DNA of 19,618 nt from a virus (Duplodnaviria; Heunggongvirae; Uroviricota; Caudoviricetes): the IMG/VR virus record IMGVR_UViG_3300014691_000062. One strand, given 5' to 3'. Within the stretch, counting starts at the first letter, position 1. Every line of letters starts with the position of its first letter. The notes under the pieces are model-generated. The model saw nothing but the letters and a program-made list of their open reading frames with translations. It was not told where the DNA came from and ran no database searches. This document shows, piece by piece, positions 3,633-19,618 of this stretch. The position numbers and the translations under genes are program-made.

Positions 3633-4116
3633 CTATCTGCACTGCTCATTAATATACTTCTGGGTTCCTTCCAGTTGTTTTTGCATAGTGATCAGCCTCT
3701 CTCTGAGAGTGAAATAATCCCGTTCAGCGGTGTCTGCCAGTCGGGGGGAGGCTGCATTATCCATGCCGGAGGCGGTGGTGGCTTCACGCACTGACTGACA
3801 GACTGCTTTGATGTGCAACCGACGACGACCAGCGGCAACATCATCACGCAGAGCATCATTTTCAGCTTTCGCATCAGCTAACTCCTTCGTGTATTTTGCA
3901 TCGAGCGCAGCGACATCACGTTGGCGCACCTGCATGTCAGTAATTGCCGCGTTCGCCAGCTTCAGTTCTCTGGCATTTTTNNNNNNNNNNNNNNNNNNNN
4001 NNNNNNNNNNNNNNNNNNNNNNNNNNNNNNNNNNNNNNNNNNNNNNNNNNAGCCAATGACATGCAGACGATGATGCAGATGAGCAGAGCGGAGATAATCG
4101 CGGTTAATCTGCTCAT
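3633..4116 (-). CDS. Rz: Rz i-spanin (inner-membrane spanin subunit), interrupted by an N-run
   Basis: C-terminal part (ORF 3633..3935) matches lambda Rz by recall; N-terminus [18 protein letters not shown] is read from the ATG at 4116, which overlaps the R stop (ATGA). N-run 3981..4050 lies inside, so the length is not a multiple of 3. Confidence 0.85.
3692..3874 (-). CDS. Rz1: Rz1 o-spanin lipoprotein, embedded in Rz in the +1 frame
   Basis: 60 aa [24 protein letters not shown]…[15 protein letters not shown]…, lipobox and proline-rich body as in lambda Rz1. Confidence 0.85.
3981..4050. other. Run of 70 N (gap or masked sequence) inside Rz
   Basis: Literal n characters in the sequence. Confidence 1.
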
Positions 4117-5209: not shown

Positions 5210-6244
5210 ATGACTGCATCAGCGACCCCCACTAATATCACTCATAAGTTTATTGTTCACATTATGAACAAGGAACAACAGGGGTTAGCCACCATTATTC
5301 CTTGTCCTTCAGAAAAACCTGTTCAGCAAGCATCAAAAGACCTCTCTAACGCACTTACTGAAAGGTACTCTGGGAGAGCAGGTAAAGGATATGGGAAATT
5401 TGAAGATGACCGCGATAGTTACCCTATGGGTAATATCGTTGATGATTATTTCGTAAATAAAACACATAGTTTTTATGATACTAGTATCCGAATGATCAAT
5501 CATTTAAAAGCCAGAGCCGATGATGAATCAATGTCTACTGGTGGTTATGTAATAATTGCCCATAATGAGGTAAATGGAAATCATTATTTGATGGTTGCAA
5601 TCCTAACTTCAGCAGTTGGCTCTTCAGTCCACGATTTTGAAATTCAAGAAAGTGAATATCTAGACATTGCTAAACTTCGAGTAGCGGGACGAATTGACTT
5701 AACTGGGCGCCAGAATGGCAAAGAGAGATATATTAGCTTTCTAAAGGGGCAAAATTCAGTAGCAGGTTATTTCAAAAAGTTTTTAGGTTGCAACGATATT
5801 CTAATTGCCAAACAAGAAACAACAAAATTACGGAATGCACTTTTAGAATTTGCTACTGAAAGAGGTTTTGAACCAGAGGCACGTGAAGAGTTCCTAAATA
5901 AGGCTCATGAAAAATTAAAAAATTTAAATCGTTCTGGTGAAACTTTCGACACTCAAATTTTTGCAAACGAGATATGGCCAACTGCTCCTGAGTTGTTAGT
6001 TGAAAAGTTAACCAATGACGATCTGGAGTTCTCTGATGGGTTCGTGCCTGATGGCAACGTTATACGTGGGCTTGTTAGTTTCAAAGGAAAGTCCAAACAT
6101 TGGTCTCTGAAATTCGAGCGTGCGGCCTTGCATGATGGCAGCGTTCTTTATGATTCAGAAAACGATAAATTGATACTTACCGAGATTCCGGATACGCTAA
6201 GATCAGAGATTTTATCAGAATTAGGTGAAGAGGATGAGCAGTAA
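5210..6244 (+). CDS. YejK/NdpA-like (NA37 family) nucleoid-associated-protein homologue, cargo gene
   Basis: 344 aa; AAGGA SD 7 nt upstream of the ATG. By-eye alignment to E. coli YejK along the length ([22 protein letters not shown] / [38 protein letters not shown]…RYISFLKGQ / YLDINHADIVARIDLT…RYLTFLKGR). AT-rich relative to the phage backbone. Confidence 0.75.
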   Translation: [344 protein letters not shown]

Positions 6245-7412
6245 AAATCAGAGAACCTTCAAAGACTTAGTGACTATTTACAAGGCCGCTACATTTGCAG
6301 GTACCCTATCTGAAGCATCACTCATTCTTTCAAACGAGGAGCTCTGTGACATCATCAACGATATCACAGAGAATCCCCATGATTTTGGCATCACCCTTGA
6401 ATCTGGCAACATTGAGTTAGGCCAAACTATAACCTTACATATAACCCCCCCCAAATTACGATTGGGGCAGCTACATTTCTCTTTTAATGAGTATTTAAAA
6501 AATCCTAAAAATAGGATAAAGGAAGCCAGTAACTTCTTTATAATCGAACTTAATTATCACAACAGGGATAAAAAGTCGCCTGCTATTATATCCAAGTACA
6601 GAGATGTTTTGAGCTTAATTACTTTATTCAAAGATTGTTCTGCTTATTTAGATGAAACAAATTTTGAATTGGTATTCGTCGAATCCAACGTACTAAAAAT
6701 TCCAGTAAATTATTCTAGCGATGATCTTATGAATGTTAATGGAGATCTGATTCATAATTTGATCGCAAACTTTGCAGAAGATACGCATAAAGATCAAAAA
6801 CTTACTATTTTAGCAAGTAGTATAAAATCATCATGTGAATCTAAAACTAAAGAAACCTCTTTTTCCTTCATGTTAAGGGATTTAGGACAACTTTATGAAA
6901 GTTATCAAAAAGGATACAAAGTATTCGTTTCTGGTTTTTCTTACGAGAAAATACTAGATCAGTTACGAGTAGCCAAAATAGAAGAGATGGGGAAAATACA
7001 TAAAGTATTCAGTGACATACAAAATCAGATATTAGGTATCCCCGTCGCAACAATTATCGTTGCGACTCAAATGAAGCAGGCTAATGGTTGGGATAGTCAA
7101 GCATTAATAAACACAGCTGTAGTGTTGGGTGCATTGTTCTTCACTATTATGATTATATTTGTTCTATTTAATCAATGGCAAACTTTAACAGCAATAAATG
7201 ATGAGTTAAATCATAAAAAACAACAAGCAGAATATAACTTCAAGGCTATTTACGAAGATATAAAGGATACATTTGATAGTTTAACCACAAGATTGCTTGT
7301 TCAGAAAGTTGTTTTTGCCTCATTAGGAATTATAGTTTTATGTGGCTTATATCTTACATTTAGATTCTACTTTTTACTTACACCTTATGCTATTACATAT
7401 TTATTTAGCTGA
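6234..7412 (+). CDS. Membrane protein with a large N-terminal soluble domain and two C-terminal transmembrane helices, cargo gene
   Basis: ORF 6225..7412 (GTG); preferred ATG at 6234 with AGGTGA SD, overlapping the upstream stop by 11 nt. Hydrophobic helices ALINTAVVLGALFFTIMIIFVLF and VVFASLGIIVLCGLYLTFRFYFLL. Very AT-rich. No family recognised. Confidence 0.75.
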   Translation: MSSKNQRTFKDLVTIYKAATFAGTLSEASLILSNEELCDIINDITENPHDFGITLESGNIELGQTITLHITPPKLRLGQLHFSFNEYLKNPKNRIKEASNFFIIELNYHNRDKKSPAIISKYRDVLSLITLFKDCSAYLDETNFELVFVESNVLKIPVNYSSDDLMNVNGDLIHNLIANFAEDTHKDQKLTILASSIKSSCESKTKETSFSFMLRDLGQLYESYQKGYKVFVSGFSYEKILDQLRVAKIEEMGKIHKVFSDIQNQILGIPVATIIVATQMKQANGWDSQALINTAVVLGALFFTIMIIFVLFNQWQTLTAINDELNHKKQQAEYNFKAIYEDIKDTFDSLTTRLLVQKVVFASLGIIVLCGLYLTFRFYFLLTPYAITYLFS

Positions 7413-7436: not shown

Positions 7437-7784
7437 TTACCCATGTATTATATATATAACTGCATCAATAAATCCCAATGCAGCTTGCAACTTTTTTCTT
7501 ATAGTCCCATCAGAGCATTTTCTCTTCTTCGCAATAGTGCGTAATGAGATACCGATAACATAGTGAGCAATGATTAGCTCATATTCTTCAGGCCTATATT
7601 TACGCAACCGAGCCACACAACTGTCTATCATAATGCCTTCGTCATCATCACACTGAATCCGGGACTTTTTGCCATGAGGTAAAAGTCCCTTGAAGCCAGC
7701 GGCTACCGGTTGCCAGTCCACTCCGCTATTGTCTGAAGCAGCCCAAGCTCCCCAACGATCCATTACTTCATACATATCACGCAT
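7437..7784 (-). CDS. Late-gene antiterminator Q (QuuD / phage-82 type)
   Basis: 115 aa from the ATG at 7784 (track start 7799 is TTG); GGAGAAAG SD. Matches DLP12 QuuD by recall (MRD…RWGAWAA…AAGFKGL…KSR.QC.DDD…CSDG.I.K.LQ). Confidence 0.8.
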   Translation of the reverse strand: MRDMYEVMDRWGAWAASDNSGVDWQPVAAGFKGLLPHGKKSRIQCDDDEGIMIDSCVARLRKYRPEEYELIIAHYVIGISLRTIAKKRKCSDGTIRKKLQAALGFIDAVIYIIHG

Positions 7785-7801
7785 CAACTTTCTCCACAAA
7801 A

Positions 7802-11480: not shown

Positions 11481-12313
11481 TCACCCCCTGAATCCTGCCG
11501 GGATCTGGCTGTAGTCCACGTTGTCGTAACTGGATTTGAAATACGGGTCTTCGCGTTTTTCTGTGTATGTGCTGATGGACGGCGATAAGCGCAGGGAAAG
11601 CTCATCCCATTTTTCCCGCAGCTTCGACGGGCTGAGCACGTTACGGCACCAGAACGGATCGCGGCTGACGCGGCTGTACATCTCGCAGATTTGTTTGTGA
11701 GTACGACCATCCTGCACACACATCAGGCGAATTTCGTTTGCCCAGGCTGTCCAGTTCGGTTCTTTGGGACGAACCACCTCGCCGTCACATTCGGCGGCCT
11801 GCTCGTACAGGGCGATGANNNNNNNNNNTGCTGGGTTGGGAAACCGCCGGAACGAGAAGGTTTTTTATCTGACGGATCATGTTTTGATTTTACTGACGGA
11901 TCCCCGCCAGATTCTGACGGGTGAAAACCCGCTTTTTTGCCAGATTTCGACGCATCAAATTTTGACGGGTCAGATTTTGATGCGTCAGATTTTGACGGGT
12001 CAGAATCTGACAGTTGAGAAAATGCCGCTGCCTGAAGCTTCGCAACGTTAAGCTGATAAACATTCGACGCATTGCGGTTACCCTGGCGACGCGCCTTACG
12101 CGTTAACCAGCCTTCTGCTTCCAGCCGTGCGATAGCCGTTCTGACGGTACTCATCCCCGCGCCAATCTGGCGGGCAATGGTTTCAATTGATGGCCAGCAC
12201 ACACCTTCGTCATTACTGAAATCAGCCAGGCGGGCCATAATTGCCACGCTGGATAATTTCATGCCTGATGCAGCGCAACCATCCCATACATAGCCGGTTA
12301 ATTTAGTGCTCAT
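11481..12313 (-). CDS. Replication initiator (lambda O-like organisation, HTH N-domain) with the origin iterons inside the gene; interrupted by an N-run
   Basis: N-terminal HTH domain (…WPSIETIARQIGAGMSTVRTAIARLEAEGWL…), then a repetitive SKSDASKSDPSKFD linker encoded by iterons; C-terminal part is ORF 11481..11777. N-run 11819..11828 inside; GAGGT SD. Confidence 0.7.
11819..11828. other. Run of 10 N inside the replication gene
   Basis: Literal n characters in the sequence. Confidence 1.
11866..12012. repeat. Origin-like iteron array
   Basis: About 8 tandem copies of a ~12-15 bp unit built on TGACGG (cagattttgacgggt, cagattttgatgcgt, attctgacgggt, tactgacggatc …). Confidence 0.7.
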
Positions 12314-12661: not shown

Positions 12662-13266
12662 GCGTTAGTTTCTCCACAGTCACGACACGCCACGGCGCCC
12701 GGAGCTGCACACTCGCGGGCGTCATTACTTTCTGAAATGCAAAAGATTTTGTAGACCAGTGCTGCATGCTCCTGCAGCTTCGAAATTGAGAGATACAGCT
12801 CGTCGTTAATTGCTGTCTTCTCATGCGGTTCCACCACACCGTCTTCGATTGCCGAACGAATCTGTCTGGAATAACTGCCAATCTGTTCAATGACTTCCAG
12901 CAGGCGCTGGTTAATATCGGCGTTGTCCACATCCTCGACGTCAGGAAGAGACACAAAGACGCCATTTGCAGACTGCGCCACAGCGTCAGCAATGAAGTGA
13001 GTTCCACCAGCACGTTGCAAAATCATTGCCCATCCCAGCGGGAAAATCTGATCGCCATCGGCACGAAGGCGGTTAAATAATGCGTTTTCTGTTACATCCA
13101 GCCAGTCAGCTGCTTCAGCGTAACCACCCGGCAACGCTGCGATAGTTTTTCTGACAGCTTTCACGTACCACTCAGGCTGTTTTTCTACTTTCCAGTGATG
13201 CTTACCCACGGTTAGCCTCATCGTTCTGTGGTTTCTGTTAATCGATTTATCCATTAGATTTTTCAT
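12658..13266 (-). CDS. Putative CII-like / YdaT-family regulator
   Basis: Long ORF immediately downstream of a YdaS-like cro. The track start at 13323 would overlap cro by 77 nt; plausible ATGs are at 13266, 13254 and 13221. Family assignment is from position and partial recall. Confidence 0.45.
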
Positions 13267-13447
13267 AAAGCTCAGGTTTAAATGGCAACCGTCCGCAAGT
13301 TCTATATGCAGCTTCTGCTGCACGTCCTTTTGGAATTAACTGGCCCGGACGGTTTCGCCACTGATAAACGGCTTCAGTTGTTATGCCGAAAAAAGCAGCA
13401 ACTTTCTCAATACTGCCGAAGTAGCTTTCGATATCGTCAGTTGTCAT
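13247..13447 (-). CDS. cro: Cro-like repressor (YdaS-family HTH)
   Basis: 66 aa, divergent from cI across an operator region; HTH …SIEKVAAFFGITTEAVYQWRN… resembles YdaS/Cro. Confidence 0.75.
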   Translation of the reverse strand: MTTDDIESYFGSIEKVAAFFGITTEAVYQWRNRPGQLIPKGRAAEAAYRTCGRLPFKPELYEKSNG

Positions 13448-13544
13448 ACGCCCTCCAAACTAAGTTTTATTAGATGCTAATTACAAATCTATCTTTGGTC
13501 AATAAAAACTAAGATTACTTAGCAATTCAAGAAATGGTGCTCCT
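13448..13544. promoter_or_regulatory. OR-like region: divergent promoters with two operator palindromes
   Basis: CTAAGttttaTTAG at 13460..13473 and CTAAGattaCTTAG at 13509..13522 between divergent cro and cI. Confidence 0.6.
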
Positions 13545-14171
13545 ATGGAAACGGTTGGTCAGCGTATAAAAGCTCTGAGAAGAGTTACCGGAACGTCCCA
13601 GAAAGAATTGGGTAAATTTTGTGGAGTAAGCGACGTTGCTGTGGGGTACTGGGAGAAAGACATCAATACCCCTGGTGGGGAGGCACTTTCGAAATTAGCG
13701 AAGTTCTTCAATACGTCAATAGATTACATTCTTTATGGTGCTGAGTTTGAAGGCAAACTCGTCACAAACATGCGCAGAGTTCCTGTAATATCGTGGGTTC
13801 AGGCTGGGCAGTTTACTGAATGCAGGGCAGCAGAAGTGTTTAGTGAAGTGGACAAGTGGGTAGATACATCATTAAAGATTGGTGATAACTCATTTGCATT
13901 AGAGGTTAAAGGTGACTCCATGACTAACCCTAATGGCCTCCCAACAATACCAGAAGGCGCAACAGTGATTGTAGATCCAGATGCAGAACCTCGTCATGGA
14001 AAAATAGTCATCGCTCGACTTGATGGAACAAACGAAGCTACAGTAAAAAAATTAGTCATCGATGGCCCTCAAAAGTTTTTAGTGCCATTAAATCCTCGGT
14101 ATCCCAACATCCCTATCAATGGTAATTGCCTTATCATTGGTGTAGTCAAAGGAGTTCAATACGAACTCTAA
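13545..14171 (+). CDS. cI: CI-type prophage repressor (HTH plus S24 LexA-like autopeptidase domain)
   Basis: 208 aa; HTH …GTSQKELGKFCGVSDVAVGYWEKD…; S24 motifs GDSM and …ATVKKL…; overall similarity to P22 C2 / lambda CI by recall. Confidence 0.9.
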   Translation: METVGQRIKALRRVTGTSQKELGKFCGVSDVAVGYWEKDINTPGGEALSKLAKFFNTSIDYILYGAEFEGKLVTNMRRVPVISWVQAGQFTECRAAEVFSEVDKWVDTSLKIGDNSFALEVKGDSMTNPNGLPTIPEGATVIVDPDAEPRHGKIVIARLDGTNEATVKKLVIDGPQKFLVPLNPRYPNIPINGNCLIIGVVKGVQYEL

Positions 14172-14184
14172 GACCTCTCTTCTC

Positions 14185-14255
14185 TAACTAAGGCACCGAA
14201 CTAAGAAAAGTTTGGTGTTTTTTCTTGCCATAATAACTAAGTTAAGTTAGATTTT
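14185..14255 (+). promoter_or_regulatory. OL/PL-like region: operator repeats and a candidate sigma70 promoter
   Basis: CTAAG…CTAAG at 14188..14205 and CTAAGttaagTTAG at 14237..14250; TTGCCA (14225..14230), 17-nt spacer, TAGATT (14248..14253). Confidence 0.5.
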
Positions 14256-14361
14256 ATATCAAAGATAACGAACAGGCAGGACGCCCACGAAGTAGCCGCC
14301 TGGGGCATATAAAGTCTAGGGTGATTCGTTAGCAACAAAAAAGCGCCCTACAGGACGCTTA

Positions 14362-14374
14362 GCTCTTTAACAAT
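14362..14374 (+). promoter_or_regulatory. boxA-like element (rrn-type GCTCTTTAACAAT) in the early-left leader
   Basis: 13/13 identity with the E. coli rrn boxA core as I recall it; about 110 nt downstream of the putative PL and 45 nt upstream of the first early-left ORF. Confidence 0.45.
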
Positions 14375-14418
14375 CTGGTCCCCATCAACAAGTAACTGAT
14401 AACTTGAGGAGGTGTGAA

Positions 14419-14625
14419 ATGCACAAAACAGAACCCAAAATCGTCGCGCCCGGATACACAAATGAGGAAATTTACGAGTGGATGGCAAAGAAGCTGGCAG
14501 CTATAAACCAGCTTCGTGAAGTGCTGTCTTATCGACAGGAAACAATAGACTCCTTAAAAAAACTGGATCAGGAAATCACGGTTTTATCACAGGATGTTAC
14601 TTTAGATATTGTGCAGACAAATTAG
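14419..14625 (+). CDS. Small hypothetical protein in the position normally held by N
   Basis: 68 aa from the ATG at 14419 with GGAGGTG SD (track start 14404 is TTG). No arginine-rich motif, so not N-like. AT-rich. Confidence 0.5.
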   Translation: MHKTEPKIVAPGYTNEEIYEWMAKKLAAINQLREVLSYRQETIDSLKKLDQEITVLSQDVTLDIVQTN

Positions 14626-15031
14626 GATCCCATTCATTTTCGTCAAAATCATCAAAGTGATGAATTTGTGATCTCCAGTCTCGATAATCTAAAAATTTCT
14701 GGGCGGTTACGCTTATTTTATCAAGTGTGAGTTCATCCTGAATTGAAAGAAGAAGTTCATCAAATTTCATCTCATTAATCTGTTTTGGCATCCAGTGATG
14801 CTTCATCAGAATAAGGTGAACCAGAGCCTTTTTCCCATTCAACTGATTATAGGGAGTGCCGAATTTCTTCCGGTGCTCATGTAAGACAAGGTCCAGAAGA
14901 GTAAGTAATGTTGCCCTTGATTCCACTTTGCTTATTTCGACTGATGACACTACCCCACTGATTTCAATGCCCCGATACTTTCCAACATTTTCACAGTGGG
15001 ATTTGTACAGCGTGTAGATATTACCGGACAT
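14597..15031 (-). CDS. Hypothetical protein, convergent with and overlapping the preceding ORF
   Basis: 144 aa, ATG with AGGA-type SD; acidic C-terminus (…HHFDDFDENEWDPN…); AT-rich; antisense to the early-left operon. Confidence 0.55.
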   Translation of the reverse strand: MSGNIYTLYKSHCENVGKYRGIEISGVVSSVEISKVESRATLLTLLDLVLHEHRKKFGTPYNQLNGKKALVHLILMKHHWMPKQINEMKFDELLLSIQDELTLDKISVTAQKFLDYRDWRSQIHHFDDFDENEWDPNLSAQYLK

Positions 15032-15046
15032 TTCTTTTCCTTTTGC

Positions 15047-15098
15047 GTTGTTGGGGATAACCAGATTAACCGAATCCTTGTTGTTGGGGAATAACCAG
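15047..15098. repeat. Direct repeat GTTGTTGGGGATAACCAG / GTTGTTGGGGAATAACCAG upstream of the 14597..15031 gene
   Basis: Two copies (15047..15064, 15080..15098) differing by one inserted A; on the minus strand they read TTATCCCCA, one mismatch from a DnaA-box consensus. Confidence 0.5.
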
Positions 15099-15104
15099 GT
15101 CCAC

Positions 15105-15545
15105 CTCGCCTGATGTGGCTAAAAGCAGGCACATAACAGCTAAGTATTTTTAACCAGAGAGAATCCTTAGCGTTGTGGTGAATGCGGCTCAGCGCACGCG
15201 GGTTAAGGTTGAGGCTGACAGTCGACCTTCTGTGGATACCCACCCGTCTGGTGTGCAACCTTCGCCAGGCACCGGGAGGCACCCGGCACCACAACTTTAT
15301 GCTGTGTGTAGTCCTGGAGGTACCAGTTTGTACCCTTGCTTCCGGCTGGTACCGTCCTTTTTACAAAACAGAGAAGAGCATCACCGGACGACGGGCTCAT
15401 AACCCAATCCATCCGGGCGGCTGCCACCGCAGGTGTTCTTCTCTGTTTTGTGGAGAAACTAACCGCCCCTACGGGGGCATTCATGGAAATGTAATTGACT
15501 CAATAATCGCCGGACGGTGAGGGCTTCCTTTTACCCGAATTCAGC
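15105..15545. other. GC-rich, ORF-poor, self-complementary segment (candidate structured RNA or decayed remnant)
   Basis: Only short ORFs with R/P/G-rich nonsense translations in several frames; nested inverted repeats (ggtaccag…ctggtacc 15320..15353; aacagagaaga…tcttctctgtt ~15367..15446; gcccctacgggggc ~15465..15478). Confidence 0.35.
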
Positions 15546-15575
15546 GCGGTGCAGCGCATATACGTGGAGAACAAA

Positions 15576-16112
15576 ATGTCATTTATTAAAACTTTTTCCG
15601 GGAAGCATTTTTATTATGACAGGATAAATAAAGACGACATCGTTATTAACGATATCGCGGTTTCCCTTTCAAATATCTGTCGCTTTGCAGGACATCTTTC
15701 ACACTTCTACAGTGTCGCCCAACATGCGGTGCTTTGCAGCCAGCTGGTGCCGCAGGAATTTGCTTTTGAAGCTTTAATGCATGATGCAACAGAAGCATAT
15801 TGCCAGGACATCCCCGCACCACTGAAACGACTTCTTCCTGACTATAAACGTATGGAAGAAAAAATAGACGCCGTAATCCGTGAGAAATACGGGTTACCTC
15901 CTGTTATGAGCACGCCAGTGAAATATGCCGATCTCATTATGCTGGCAACCGAACGCCGCGATCTCGGGCTTGATGATGGCTCTTTCTGGCCTGTACTGGA
16001 AGGTATCACGGCAACAGAGATGTTCAAAGTGATTCCACAGGCACCGGGCCATGCCTACGGGATGTTTATGGAACGTTTTAACGAGTTATCGGAGTTACGC
16101 AAATGCGCATGA
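15576..16112 (+). CDS. HD-domain phosphohydrolase
   Basis: H…H and HD motifs (…RFAGHLSHFYSVAQHA…LMHDATEAY…); ATG at 15576 with GGAGA SD (track start 15549 is GTG). Confidence 0.75.
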   Translation: MSFIKTFSGKHFYYDRINKDDIVINDIAVSLSNICRFAGHLSHFYSVAQHAVLCSQLVPQEFAFEALMHDATEAYCQDIPAPLKRLLPDYKRMEEKIDAVIREKYGLPPVMSTPVKYADLIMLATERRDLGLDDGSFWPVLEGITATEMFKVIPQAPGHAYGMFMERFNELSELRKCA

Positions 16113-16465
16113 ATGTTTTCGAAATGGAAGGGTTTCTTCGTGGGAGATGTGTACCGCGAGATCTGAAAGTGAATGAAACAGATGCTGAATACCTGGTACG
16201 TAAATTCGATGCGCTTGAAGCTAAATGTACAGCACTGGAAAACAAAGTAATACCAGTGTCAGCTGAACTGCCGCCAGCAAATGAAAGTGTTCTGTTATTT
16301 GATGCTAATGGAGAAGGCTGGCTGATTGGCTGGCGTTCTCTCTGGTACACCTGGGGACAAAAAGAAACCGGAGAATGGCAGTGGACATTTCAGGTCGGGG
16401 ACCTTGAAAACGTCAATATCACTCACTGGGCAGTAATGCCAAAAGCACCGGAGGCTGGAGCATAA
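16103..16465 (+). CDS. DUF551-like phage protein
   Basis: 120 aa, Trp-rich C-terminal half (…GWLIGWRSLWYTWGQKETGEWQW…); GGAG SD; start overlaps the upstream stop. Confidence 0.55.
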   Translation: MRMNVFEMEGFLRGRCVPRDLKVNETDAEYLVRKFDALEAKCTALENKVIPVSAELPPANESVLLFDANGEGWLIGWRSLWYTWGQKETGEWQWTFQVGDLENVNITHWAVMPKAPEAGA

Positions 16466-16770
16466 TGACCACTTTTACCGACAAAGAACTGATTAAAGAA
16501 ATTAAAGAGCGTATCAGCAGCCTTGACGTGCGAGACGATATTGAGCGCCGTGCTTATGAAATCGCACTCCTATCTCTGGAAGTAGAACCAGATGAACGCG
16601 AAGCTTATGAATTATTCATGGAAAAGCGTTTCGGTGACTTAGTAGATCGTCGGAGAGCAAAAAACGGCGATAACGAATACATGGCATGGGATATGACTCT
16701 CGGTTGGATCGTCTGGCAGCAACGAGCTGGTATCCATTTTTCAACAATGTCACAACAAGAGGTGAAATAA
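16465..16770 (+). CDS. Hypothetical early-region (ea-type) phage protein
   Basis: 101 aa; TAATG overlap with the upstream gene and ATGA-type overlap with xis. Confidence 0.55.
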   Translation: MTTFTDKELIKEIKERISSLDVRDDIERRAYEIALLSLEVEPDEREAYELFMEKRFGDLVDRRRAKNGDNEYMAWDMTLGWIVWQQRAGIHFSTMSQQEVK

Positions 16771-17120
16771 TGGAGCCATACAGCCTCACACTCGATGAGG
16801 CCTGTCATTTTCTCAAGATATCCAGACCGACTGCCATTAACTGGATACGCACAGGGCGTCTTCAGGCAACACGTAAAGATCCCACTAAGAATAAATCTCC
16901 TTACCTCACAACACGACAAGCCTGCATTGCGGCTCTTCAGTCTCCGCTGCATACTGTCCAGGTGAGCGCGGGTGATGGCATAACAGAGGAAAGAAAATGT
17001 CACTCTTCCGCAGAGGTGAAATATGGTACGCCAGTTTCACATTGCCGAACGGTAAAAGATTTAAACAGTCTCTTGGAACAAAGGACAAAAGGCAGGCGAC
17101 AGAACTCCATGACAAGCTAA
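16770..17120 (+). CDS. xis: Excisionase (P22-type Xis)
   Basis: 116 aa from the ATG at 16770 ([33 protein letters not shown]…); HTH and position immediately upstream of int. The ORF overlaps the int start by 124 nt, so the true C-terminus may differ. Confidence 0.8.
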
Positions 17121-18160
17121 AGGCTGAAGCATGGCGGGTCAGCAAACTTGGTGAAATACCTGATATAACGTTCGAGGAAGCTTGTGTCAGGTGGCTTGAA
17201 GAGAAAGCACATAAAAAATCACTGGACGATGACAAAAGCCGGATCGGATTCTGGCTTCAACATTTCGCAGGAATGCAACTAAGAGACATTACTGAATCAA
17301 AAATTTATTCAGCAATGCAGAAAATGACGAACCGGCGTCATGAGGAAAACTGGAAACTCAGGGCAGAAGCATGCAGAAAAAAAGGGAAACCTGTTCCAGA
17401 ATACACGCCAAAACCAGCGTCCGTTGCAACGAAGGCTACGCATCTTTCATTTATAAAGGCCCTACTAAGAGCCGCAGAGCGTGAATGGAAAATGCTGGAT
17501 AAGGCACCAATTATTAAAGTGCCTCAACCAAAGAATAAACGGATCCGCTGGCTGGAGCCCCATGAAGCACAAAGGCTGATTGATGAATGTCCGGAGCCAT
17601 TAAAGTCTGTTGTTGAATTTGCACTGGCAACAGGCTTAAGACGCTCGAACATCATCAACCTTGAATGGCAACAAATAGATATGCAGCGCCGGGTGGCATG
17701 GATAAACCCGGAAGAGAGTAAATCAAACCGCGCAATTGGCGTTGCGCTGAATGATACTGCATGTCGCGTATTGAAAAAACAAATCGGGAATCATCACCGT
17801 TGGGTATTTGTGTACAAGGAAAGCTGTACCAAACCAGACGGAACGAAAGCGCCAACAGTAAGGAAGATGCGGTATGACGCAAACACAGCCTGGAAAGCGG
17901 CGCTGAGACGGGCTGGTATTGATGATTTCAGATTTCACGACTTGAGACACACCTGGGCAAGTTGGCTGGTTCAAGCCGGAGTCCCGTTGTCAGTGTTACA
18001 GGAAATGGGAGGCTGGGAGTCTATCGAAATGGTTCGTCGATATGCTCACCTTGCACCTAATCACCTTACCGAACACGCACGGCAAATAGACTCGATCCTG
18101 AACCCATCGGTCCCAAATTTGTCCCAGTCAAAAAATAAGGAAGGTACTAATGATGTGTAA
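16997..18160 (+). CDS. int: Tyrosine site-specific integrase (P22-type Int)
   Basis: 387 aa; catalytic region …[16 protein letters not shown]…MVRRYAHL…; high similarity to P22 Int by recall; ends 14 bp before the 3' end of thrW. Confidence 0.95.
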
Positions 18161-18250
18161 CTTATTGATTTTAATGGTGCCGATAATAGGAGTCGAACCT
18201 ACGACCTTCGCATTACGAATGCGCTGCTCTACCAACTGAGCTATATCGGC
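18161..18250. other. Putative attL (core expected to overlap the 3' part of thrW)
   Basis: Junction between the int stop and the tRNA; P22-type integrases are known to target the 3' end of thrW. Exact core boundaries cannot be set without attR or attB. Confidence 0.45.
18175..18250 (-). tRNA. thrW: tRNA-Thr (anticodon CGU)
   Basis: 76-nt minus-strand sequence GCCGATATAGCTCAGTTGGTAGAGCAGCGCATTCGTAATGCGAAGGTCGTAGGTTCGACTCCTATTATCGGCACCA: cloverleaf, CGT anticodon, encoded CCA end. Confidence 0.95.
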
Positions 18251-18364: not shown

Positions 18365-19618
18365 TTACGCACGAATGGTGTAATCACCAATGCCGATCCA
18401 CTTGTAAGTGGTCAGTGCTTCCAGCCCCATTGGGCCACGCGCGTGGAGTTTTTGTGTGCTTACCGCCACTTCCGCACCCAGACCAAACTGGCCGCCGTCG
18501 GTAAAACGCGTAGAGGCGTTAACGTAAACAGCGGACGAATCCACTTCGTTAACAAAACGCTGGGCGTTGCGCATATCGCGGGTCAGGATCGCATCGGAGT
18601 GTTGTGTGCCGTGTTCACGAATATGGGCGATGGCATCGTCAAGATCGCTGATGATTTTGGCGTTCAAATCTAATGACAGAAACTCATCGTCATACTCTTC
18701 GGCTTTAACAGCAACCACCTTCGCAGGGCCTGCCTGCAACTGCGCCAGTGCAGCTGCATCTGCGTGTAATGTCACGCCGCTTTCCGCCATTTGTTTGCTT
18801 AATGCGGGCAGGAAGCTATCGGCGATGTTTTTATTCACCAGCAACGTTTCAACCGTATTACATGTGCTCGGACGCTGAGTTTTCGCGTTGACGATCACTT
18901 TTAATGCTTCAGCGATCTCTACACTTTCATCAACGTAAATATGGCATACGCCTATACCACCTGTGATCACCGGGATTGTCGACTGTTCACGGCACAGTTT
19001 ATGCAAACCAGCGCCACCACGCGGGATCAGCATGTCGATGTATTTATCCATACGCAGCATTTCACTGACCAGCGCACGGTCAGGATTATCAATCGCCTGC
19101 ACGGCACCCGCCGGTAAGCCGCAGGATTTCAGGGCGTCCTGAATCACCGCCACCGTTGCAGCGTTAGTGCGACACGTTTCTTTGCCACCGCGCAGGATCA
19201 CCGCATTACCGGTTTTCAGGCACAGCGAAGCGACATCAACCGTCACGTTCGGGCGCGCTTCATAAATCACGCCAATAACCCCCAGCGGTACGCGACGACG
19301 CTCAAGACGCAGGCCGCTGTCCAGTACGCTGCCATCGATTACCTGCCCCACCGGATCGGCGAGGTTACACACCTGGCGCACATCATCGGCAATGCCTTTC
19401 AGCCGTGCGGGCGTCAGTGCCAGACGGTCAAGCATCGCTTCGCCAAGGCCATTGGCACGCGCGTCAGCAACATCCTGGGCGTTAGCGTTGAGGATGATTT
19501 CGCTTTGTGCTTCCAGTTCATCGGCGATTTTTTCCAGCACGCGATTTTTTTCGCGGCTGGAGAGTTGCGCTAATTTATACGAGGCTTGCTTCGCGGCAAT
19601 GCCCATTTGTTCCAGCAT
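18365..19618 (-). CDS. proA: Gamma-glutamyl phosphate reductase
   Basis: Complete 417-aa ORF, start codon at the window edge; matches E. coli ProA by recall ([21 protein letters not shown]…). Confidence 0.95.

Follow-up and report, generated by a model that had tools for sequence, protein, structure and literature searches.

Lambdoid phages provide, in the expression of their early genes, the textbook example of processive antitermination, and we know of no early antitermination mechanism for the large SfV/e14/ST64B-type group, which has been published as lacking N. We describe here the early-left leader of a prophage contained in a window of 19,618 nucleotides (the window being the whole stretch of DNA that was analysed), and compare it with the closest described systems.

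The rrn leader antiterminator is composed of boxB, boxA and boxC and acts with NusB, NusE, NusA, NusG, SuhB and S4. The window resembles it in that a hairpin stands 1–3 nt before boxA, boxA itself is identical to that of rrnH at 13/13 positions, no phage protein is needed, and Rho resistance on untranslated RNA is the expected outcome. It differs in that the window lacks the boxC-like UGUGUGGG (CTGGATATCC in most copies of the element), the hairpin is built as a terminator for the other strand, boxA lies in a protein-coding phage operon, and NusB-NusE binding is here a prediction. The nutL sites of lambda and P22, which act with N, likewise place boxA in a repressor-controlled early-left leader, but the window is without N or Nun, a conserved 3' boxB, and nutR.

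Stand-alone boxA elements are found upstream of CRISPR arrays, where boxA alone shields the untranslated array RNA from Rho (PMC7665894), and in the suhB 5' UTR, where it promotes Rho termination rather than antitermination (PMC5725501). Both are like the window in having a consensus boxA, no N, and a sense-untranslated stretch beyond; the window differs in that its boxA belongs to a prophage operon and is coupled to an opposite-strand terminator and convergent genes, and its effect could be either antitermination, as in CRISPR arrays, or repression, as in suhB. Finally, the put RNAs of HK022 and HK639 are, like the leader RNA described below as R1, structured RNAs, ∼70 nt in length, from the 5' end of the PL transcript in N-less lambdoid phages, with no universal protein partner. 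Antitermination by put works through the beta' zinc-binding domain of RNA polymerase and requires no protein factor. They differ from R1 in fold, in giving no covariance-model match, and in being present as putL plus putR, whereas R1 is a single copy.

Prophage context and the early-left operon

The window element is a lambdoid prophage of the SfV/SfIV/e14 type that lacks N; it is integrated at thrW, beside proA, and the window holds its early and lysis half. Its immunity region is near-identical to that of prophages in many E. coli genomes, and its relatives include the Shigella phages SfIV, SfV and SfII and the coliphages vB_EcoM-689R6 and Kati. The genes and gene-free stretches referred to in the text are:

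7437-7799, minus strand: Q-family antiterminator gene
13247-13447, minus strand: cro
13545-14171, plus strand: ORF for a cI-like LexA-family (S24) repressor, in the same orientation as the early-left transcript and annotated, both in near-identical genomes and in phages, as cI or LexA family protein
14419-14625, plus strand: first gene of the PL operon, 68 aa, phrog_1744 (function unknown), with a strong Shine-Dalgarno sequence, GAGGAGG
14597-15031, minus strand: convergent gene of the ECs1072 family, phrog_5286 (function unknown), with a 29-nt overlap with the 68-aa gene
14626-15548, plus strand: stretch of the PL transcript without an intact plus-strand gene, from the annotations of near-identical genomes
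15549-18160, plus strand: distal PL-operon genes dependent on read-through, namely yfdR (5'-deoxynucleotidase), a DUF551 protein gene, yfdT, and the excisionase and integrase genes
18178-18250: tRNA-Thr
18365-19618: proA

The early-left genes on the plus strand are thus the 68-aa ORF, yfdR, the DUF551 protein gene, yfdT, xis and int; the minus strand carries, besides cro and the Q gene, a CII-like ymfL, replication genes, lysis genes and terminase. The 68-aa and ECs1072-family proteins are listed in the SfIV genome paper as unique to SfIV and of no known function (PMC3851460). Differences between copies of the 68-aa gene are mostly synonymous, and the converging, overlapping pair recurs, diverged in sequence, in one further locus (L143). 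The closest full-length relative also has yfdP and yfdQ, which the window is without. Two plus-strand genes (5210-7412), for a nucleoid-associated protein and a hypothetical protein, stand between the Q gene and the lysis genes, where they oppose late transcription and form another convergent accessory-gene slot. Masked bases (runs of N) interrupt the gene for the terminase large subunit (325-393), the lysis region (3981-4050) and an early-right gene (11819-11828).

Two elements lie between the repressor gene and the leader:

14194-14224, plus strand: intrinsic terminator 3' of the repressor gene, CACCGAAC...GTTTGGTG then TTTTTTC, read from the sequence, the stem also appearing in the cmscan alignment
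14225-14253, plus strand: PL-like sigma-70 promoter, TTGCCA-17 nt-TAGATT, from a promoter scan; an operator-like repeat at 14235-14252 overlaps it

In SfV a terminator is annotated at the place equivalent to 14194-14224, and homologous leaders carry TTGACA-17-TACATT or CATAAT at equal distance. The PL transcript is predicted to start at ∼14260. The repeat AACTAAG-N6-TTAG is present at the PL-like promoter and twice in the cro-cI intergenic region (13458-13475 and 13502-13522), as expected for operators serving both PL and PR/PRM; with a spacing of N6 or N7, the listed operator-like repeats are these two together with 14199-14224 and 14235-14252. The promoter-like site and its operator repeats lie ∼100 nt 5' of boxA on the same strand, and the order of repressor gene, terminator, consensus-like promoter and leader is also found in SfV, ST64B, ZF40, YeP1, AH07, phiNP and several uncultivated viral contigs. 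An earlier note on this DNA had placed boxA in the PL leader, and the shared operator repeats and the recurring layout support early-left transcription under repressor control from the predicted start.

boxA, its hairpin and the convergent genes

The leader contains two adjoining elements on opposite strands:

14330-14360, minus strand: intrinsic terminator for convergent transcription, with hairpin 14360-14341 AAGCGTCC TGTA GGGCGCTT followed by TTTTTGTTGCT, from a terminator scan
14362-14374, plus strand: rrn-type boxA GCTCTTTAACAAT, identical at 13/13 positions to the rrnH leader boxA and conserved in the PL leaders of many phages

All 13 bases of GCTCTTTAACAAT agree with the E. coli K-12 rrnH leader boxA ACTGCTCTTTAACAATTTATC, and 14362-14372 is an exact fit to GYTCTTTAANA (rrn GCUCUUUAACAA), the consensus derived from functional boxA elements (PMC5725501). 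Alignment with rrn leaders thus upholds the earlier description of the element as rrn-type. It is the sole exact copy in the window, which holds no second perfect match to the consensus either. The Kd of NusB:NusE for rrnG boxA is 5–8 nM, and that of NusB alone for lambda nut boxA is ∼1.5 µM (PMC2800207). A consensus boxA 3 bp upstream of a prophage cII gene appears in a supplementary table of a published study (PMC5725501), so that an rrn-consensus boxA is not in itself unusual among lambdoid phages.

boxA and the hairpin recur together as a module of ∼55 nt, made up of an A-run, the hairpin, one variable base, GCTCTTTAA(C/A/G/T)AAT and usually CTGGATATCC. It was found in over 120 viral contigs, in representatives of 22 Enterobacterales species and, with a 70-nt query spanning the module, in 804 of 5426 complete E. 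coli genomes (∼15%); because the copies share descent, these conservation counts are not fully independent. The genera of the 22 species are Escherichia, Shigella, Enterobacter, Citrobacter, Kosakonia, Raoultella, Buttiauxella, Atlantibacter, Scandinavium, Mangrovibacter, Pseudescherichia, Symbiopectobacterium and Sodalis, plus one Enterobacteriaceae isolate. An additional leader-type copy is in a record titled Chryseobacterium, and three other matches have no hairpin context and look like chance. Wherever upstream sequence is available, the module lies 60–700 nt 3' of a repressor gene, terminator and promoter. Its loops and spacer base vary freely; GYTCTTTAANA is retained by 17 of 18 boxA-like sequences in a set of copies that was fetched by the hairpin alone, and the variable base is the N of the consensus. 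In two contexts (L138 and L218) boxA is kept in a leader that has no hairpin. We found no description in the literature searched of boxA in N-less lambdoid phages, of the module, or of the e14 and SfV leaders.

The element is short (13 nt), AT-rich and in non-coding DNA, and could in principle be a chance resemblance to boxA or a functionless neutral relic, but we consider this highly improbable. The earlier note had raised the prospect of a match within chance expectation for this composition; this did not apply, since any match occurred in only one of 200 dinucleotide-preserving shuffles. In ∼1.3 Mb of related prophage contigs, fetched via R1 regardless of boxA, 21 of 25 consensus boxA motifs are on the PL strand no more than 400 nt after R1, and the remaining four are at about the chance level (by our own estimate ∼5). 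Also against it are the persistence of boxA in the 22 species representatives despite variable loops and spacers, and the coincidence of the varying base with the degenerate consensus position. On these sequence comparisons 14362-14374 is a genuine, conserved boxA, rightly placed for a role on the PL transcript of an N-less phage.

The other parts of known boxA-containing antiterminators were looked for as well. The search for N and Nun homologues that the earlier note had suggested gave nothing: no N or Nun family member is present among ten early ORFs by PHROGs and Pfam comparison, the sole antiterminator found being Q, and a scan of all six frames of the window gave no plausible arginine-rich N-like ORF, only out-of-frame or internal artefacts. 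The absence of an N gene, which that note had claimed, agrees with the SfIV genome paper, in which SfIV, SfII and SfV are without N, cII and cIII (PMC3851460); the mEp immunity-I phages, with the N-like Gp17, are a different group (PMC11893012). As the note had also proposed, there is no boxB, in that no conserved stem-loop lies 3' of boxA. A hairpin at 14390-14407 was considered as a boxB and rejected; it overlaps the ribosome-binding site of the 68-aa gene and is missing from other contexts of the module. No nutR was found in the window, and the cro-ymfL gap of 37 bp leaves no space for one. The rrnH leader has TCTGTGTGGG 12 nt after boxA; a boxC-like UGUGUGGG was not found 3' of boxA in the window, which has TCTGGTCCCCATCAAC, nor in most relatives, which have TCTGGATATCC. 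We note that in most module copies boxA is followed by CTGGATATCC, containing the palindrome GGATATCC, and that the window has CTGGTCCCC instead at 14375-14384.

The hairpin (aagcg...cgctt at 14342-14359) forms 8 pairs over 14341-14360, and in the terminator scan it scores better on the minus than on the plus strand. The minus-strand RNA has 8 uninterrupted pairs including a U.G, whereas the plus-strand hairpin has a C.A mismatch at that position, reaches only −7.5 kcal/mol and is followed by AGCUCUUUAAC. On the minus strand the stem is followed by the U-run of TTTTTGTTGCT and is 3' of a gene on the same strand, the convergent gene ending 237 nt upstream of it; in a Klebsiella phage copy the minus-strand loop is a stable UUCG tetraloop. 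The earlier observation that a weak hairpin precedes boxA is therefore correct as to its presence and its weakness in the PL direction, but it is not a weak boxB analogue; judged by these features, it is a minus-strand intrinsic terminator for convergent genes. The stem is a generic one, since 76 of 93 copies in viral contigs fetched by the hairpin pattern alone have no boxA, and the notion that boxA is a mere part of the terminator was rejected on this count.

The downstream contexts of the module support the same reading of the hairpin. Thirty-eight unique contexts were compared, 36 with the hairpin and two, within coding sequence, without it; the controls were 71 leaders with R1 but without the module. 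A minus-strand ORF of 60 aa or more, with its end no further than 700 nt away, is present in 36/36 hairpin contexts and in 45/71 controls (Fisher p = 6e-6), and the convergent ORF is the first ORF downstream in 24/36 and 24/71, respectively (p = 0.002), although this ORF-based test is a heuristic one. In those 24 the ORF ends ∼0–165 nt from boxA, usually within 30 nt. The convergent ORFs belong to at least seven unrelated families, several of which match PHROG families of unknown function (E 1e-33 to 1e-90). The occurrence of a convergent ORF in all 36 contexts indicates that the module marks a boundary between the PL leader and a convergent accessory-gene slot. In the window, a transcript of the ECs1072-family gene would run antisense through the 68-aa gene and end at the hairpin.

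These contexts bear on the possibility that boxA acts negatively, as in suhB, with bound Nus factors repressing translation of the 68-aa gene, promoting Rho termination and damping early-left expression. In the window, 45 nt separate the end of boxA from the start codon of the 68-aa gene, a distance inside the 50-bp range used for calling suhB-like targets (PMC5725501). However, in 24 of the 36 module contexts boxA is followed by a convergent stop codon and no plus-strand gene, so that start-codon repression cannot be its general function, and curbing xis and int expression from PL would hinder excision; we regard a suhB-like role as improbable.

Beyond the 68-aa gene, the PL transcript crosses 14626-15548, the first 400 nt of which are antisense to the convergent gene. 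An ORF at 15182-15520 within it matches a gene annotated as frameshifted in near-identical genomes, and a segment at ∼14896-14960 is C-rich and G-poor in composition. The terminator predictions for this PL operon include no strong one of the intrinsic type on the plus strand. With no intact plus-strand gene, a C-rich, G-poor patch and no strong intrinsic terminator, Rho would be the obvious hazard to the transcript, a case that rests on the missing plus-strand gene and this single patch.

R1, a structured RNA in the PL leader

Upstream of the hairpin the leader contains a second conserved element, R1:

14263-14334, plus strand: R1, structured leader RNA of 72 nt, ∼8 nt after the predicted PL start, scoring 82.4 bits with the covariance model
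14268-14272 with 14325-14329, plus strand: P1, the closing helix
14274-14296, plus strand: invariant 23-nt core AGGCAGGACGCCCACGAAGUAGC
14275-14277 with 14283-14285, plus strand: putative P2, a possible helix of 3 bp that never varies
14299-14303 with 14316-14320, plus strand: P3, an internal hairpin

Comparison of the leader by blastn shows a segment of 40–65 nt that is conserved in phages of Escherichia, Shigella, Salmonella, Klebsiella, Citrobacter, Pantoea, Yersinia and Pectobacterium, and no annotated feature lies beneath these phage matches. We collected 123 distinct copies and aligned 45, from which a consensus structure was derived with RNAalifold and pairs were counted. In the alignment 97.9% of cells are paired, 9 of the 13 pairs are changed on both sides, and 141 cells show such changes; none of 500 shuffles attained these values, and structures slid by 1–3 columns pair in only 23–46% of cells. 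P1 occurs as GCGAA/UUCGC, CCACC/GGUGG and GUCAUC/GAUGAC, and P3 in many variants. The fold of the whole leader (14255-14420) is no more stable than that of shuffled sequences (z = 0.32), and the structure of R1 is demonstrated through covariation instead. An Rfam scan of the whole window at gathering thresholds found only tRNA-Thr, and a permissive scan of 14170-14650 gave chance-level matches only.

R1 follows the predicted PL start in SfV, ST64B, ZF40, YeP1, AH07, phiNP, mEp237 and e14. Of 5426 complete E. coli genomes, at least 1398 (at least 26%) carry it, with no annotation under the best matches among the genome records listed. The E. coli K-12 prophage e14 has an intact, unannotated R1 between ymfK and ymfJ (L269:7109-7181; NC_000913 1202108-1202180), and Rac has a degenerate R1 plus a second motif, E2, between racR and ydaG, also unannotated (L268:10480-10600). 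E2 (...AACGUUCCGC-hairpin-...AAGGGCA; L013:2565-2615 and L012:2455-2500) follows R1 in mEp237-type leaders and has a covarying hairpin (CGCCAG/CUGGCG vs CGCUGG/CCAGCG); it precedes the boxA module in Klebsiella phage Kp4882-1 and is not in the window. In ST64B (L006:2566-3197) and phiNP (L011) a GC-rich non-coding stretch of 650–800 nt separates R1 from the first early-left gene, and in some contigs (such as L144) a stretch of this kind ends in the hairpin-boxA module.

R1 and boxA overlap only partly in distribution. R1 is upstream of boxA on the same strand in 74 of 93 loci fetched by the module pattern, and boxA is present in only ∼12% of unique R1 leaders, 88% being without it. The covariance model detects one copy of R1 in the window and none in the PR operon. 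No arginine-rich N-like gene follows R1 in any of 88 unique leaders, and no protein of the window always accompanies it, the best being ymfL at 40 of 81 loci. An invariant core across very different phages, with no constant window protein, points to a host partner.

By covariance-model and structure comparison R1 is not a member of the put family. The model gave no match to the HK022 and HK639 put loci at E values up to 10, and the closing helix with internal hairpins is unlike the two tandem stem-loops of put. Two short strings shared with put, CGAAC-GGC and CAGGAUGA, were examined as signs of homology and rejected, as they stand in different structural contexts. We found no description of an R1-type RNA, although the literature on put-like RNAs was only partly covered and an earlier mention is possible. 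The earlier note, which had allowed for an antitermination factor encoded elsewhere, overlooked R1, which is a serious candidate for that factor, in cis.

It may be that R1 alone is the processive antiterminator and modifies RNA polymerase without a protein, as put does, with boxA auxiliary or dispensable and perhaps carried along with the cassette of terminator and convergent gene. Several of the above findings favor this: the position of R1 in N-less phages from many genera, ∼8 nt beyond the predicted PL start, its covarying helices and invariant core, the lack of a following N-like gene or a constant protein, and the majority of R1 leaders that have no boxA. SfV, moreover, has R1 and no boxA, yet there is an annotated intrinsic terminator within its PL operon, and put-type antitermination has been suggested for N-less ST64B relatives by the authors of the phage LLS study (PMC12315714). 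On the other side are the difference from put in covariance model and fold, the presence of a single copy per element with none in the PR operon, and the failure of hitch-hiking to explain either the exact boxA consensus amid varying loop, spacer and flanks or the persistence of boxA without the hairpin. We consider it rather unlikely that R1 acts alone with boxA a passenger. Equally doubtful is an RNA-only "nut site" formed by R1 and boxA with no phage protein, in which R1, unrelated in sequence to put, would represent a new class of polymerase-modifying RNA replacing N-boxB, and boxA would add the host Nus complex.

A phage or host protein that has gone unrecognised for want of similarity to N could also act at R1 and boxA as a nut-like site, given that boxA stands in the PL leader where lambda nutL lies and that the two elements share a transcript in those 74 loci. 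This is distinctly unlikely, since none of the window's proteins accompanies R1 at more than about half of the loci, the constancy of the core among widely different phages argues for a host partner, and there is no second, nutR-like site. R1 is probably a cis-acting RNA that works on host machinery and possibly a put-like N substitute; it is a stronger candidate than boxA for a general replacement of N among these phages.

Proposed function of the composite leader

The best explanation overall, to which we give about an even chance, is a composite leader in which a Nus complex loaded at boxA gives the PL transcript resistance to Rho. Given a boxA and no N or Nun, boxB or nutR, use of Nus factors independently of N is the most economical reading. 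In the proposed sequence of events the minus-strand hairpin would stop transcription of the convergent accessory genes before it reaches PL and enters the repressor gene antisense. After induction, a polymerase starting at PL would pass the hairpin, which is weak in that direction, and the nascent boxA, one base 3' of it, would recruit NusB-NusE and with them NusA, NusG and SuhB, in the way known from rrn operons and CRISPR leaders. Modified in this manner, the complex would resist Rho over ∼900 nt that hold no intact plus-strand gene and are in good part antisense to the convergent gene, and so could reach yfdR, xis and int. Nus-factor binding, Rho resistance and any role of R1 are inferred from sequence, and boxA could be redundant if R1 is itself the antiterminator.

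Under the composite model, the terminator would insulate the repressor gene from accessory-gene transcription in the lysogen, and boxA would guard PL transcription from Rho as it crosses the convergent slot antisense after induction. Antitermination that depends on boxA and not on N is already known; what is new is a boxA of this kind in a phage early operon, coupled to a terminator for the opposite strand. With the module in ∼15% of E. coli genomes and R1 in at least 26%, including the tractable K-12 prophage e14, both ideas are directly testable. If the composite model is true, N-independent, boxA-driven antitermination would extend from rRNA and CRISPR arrays to phages; if the RNA-only reading is true, N-less lambdoid prophages, including e14 of K-12, would achieve processive early antitermination without a phage protein.
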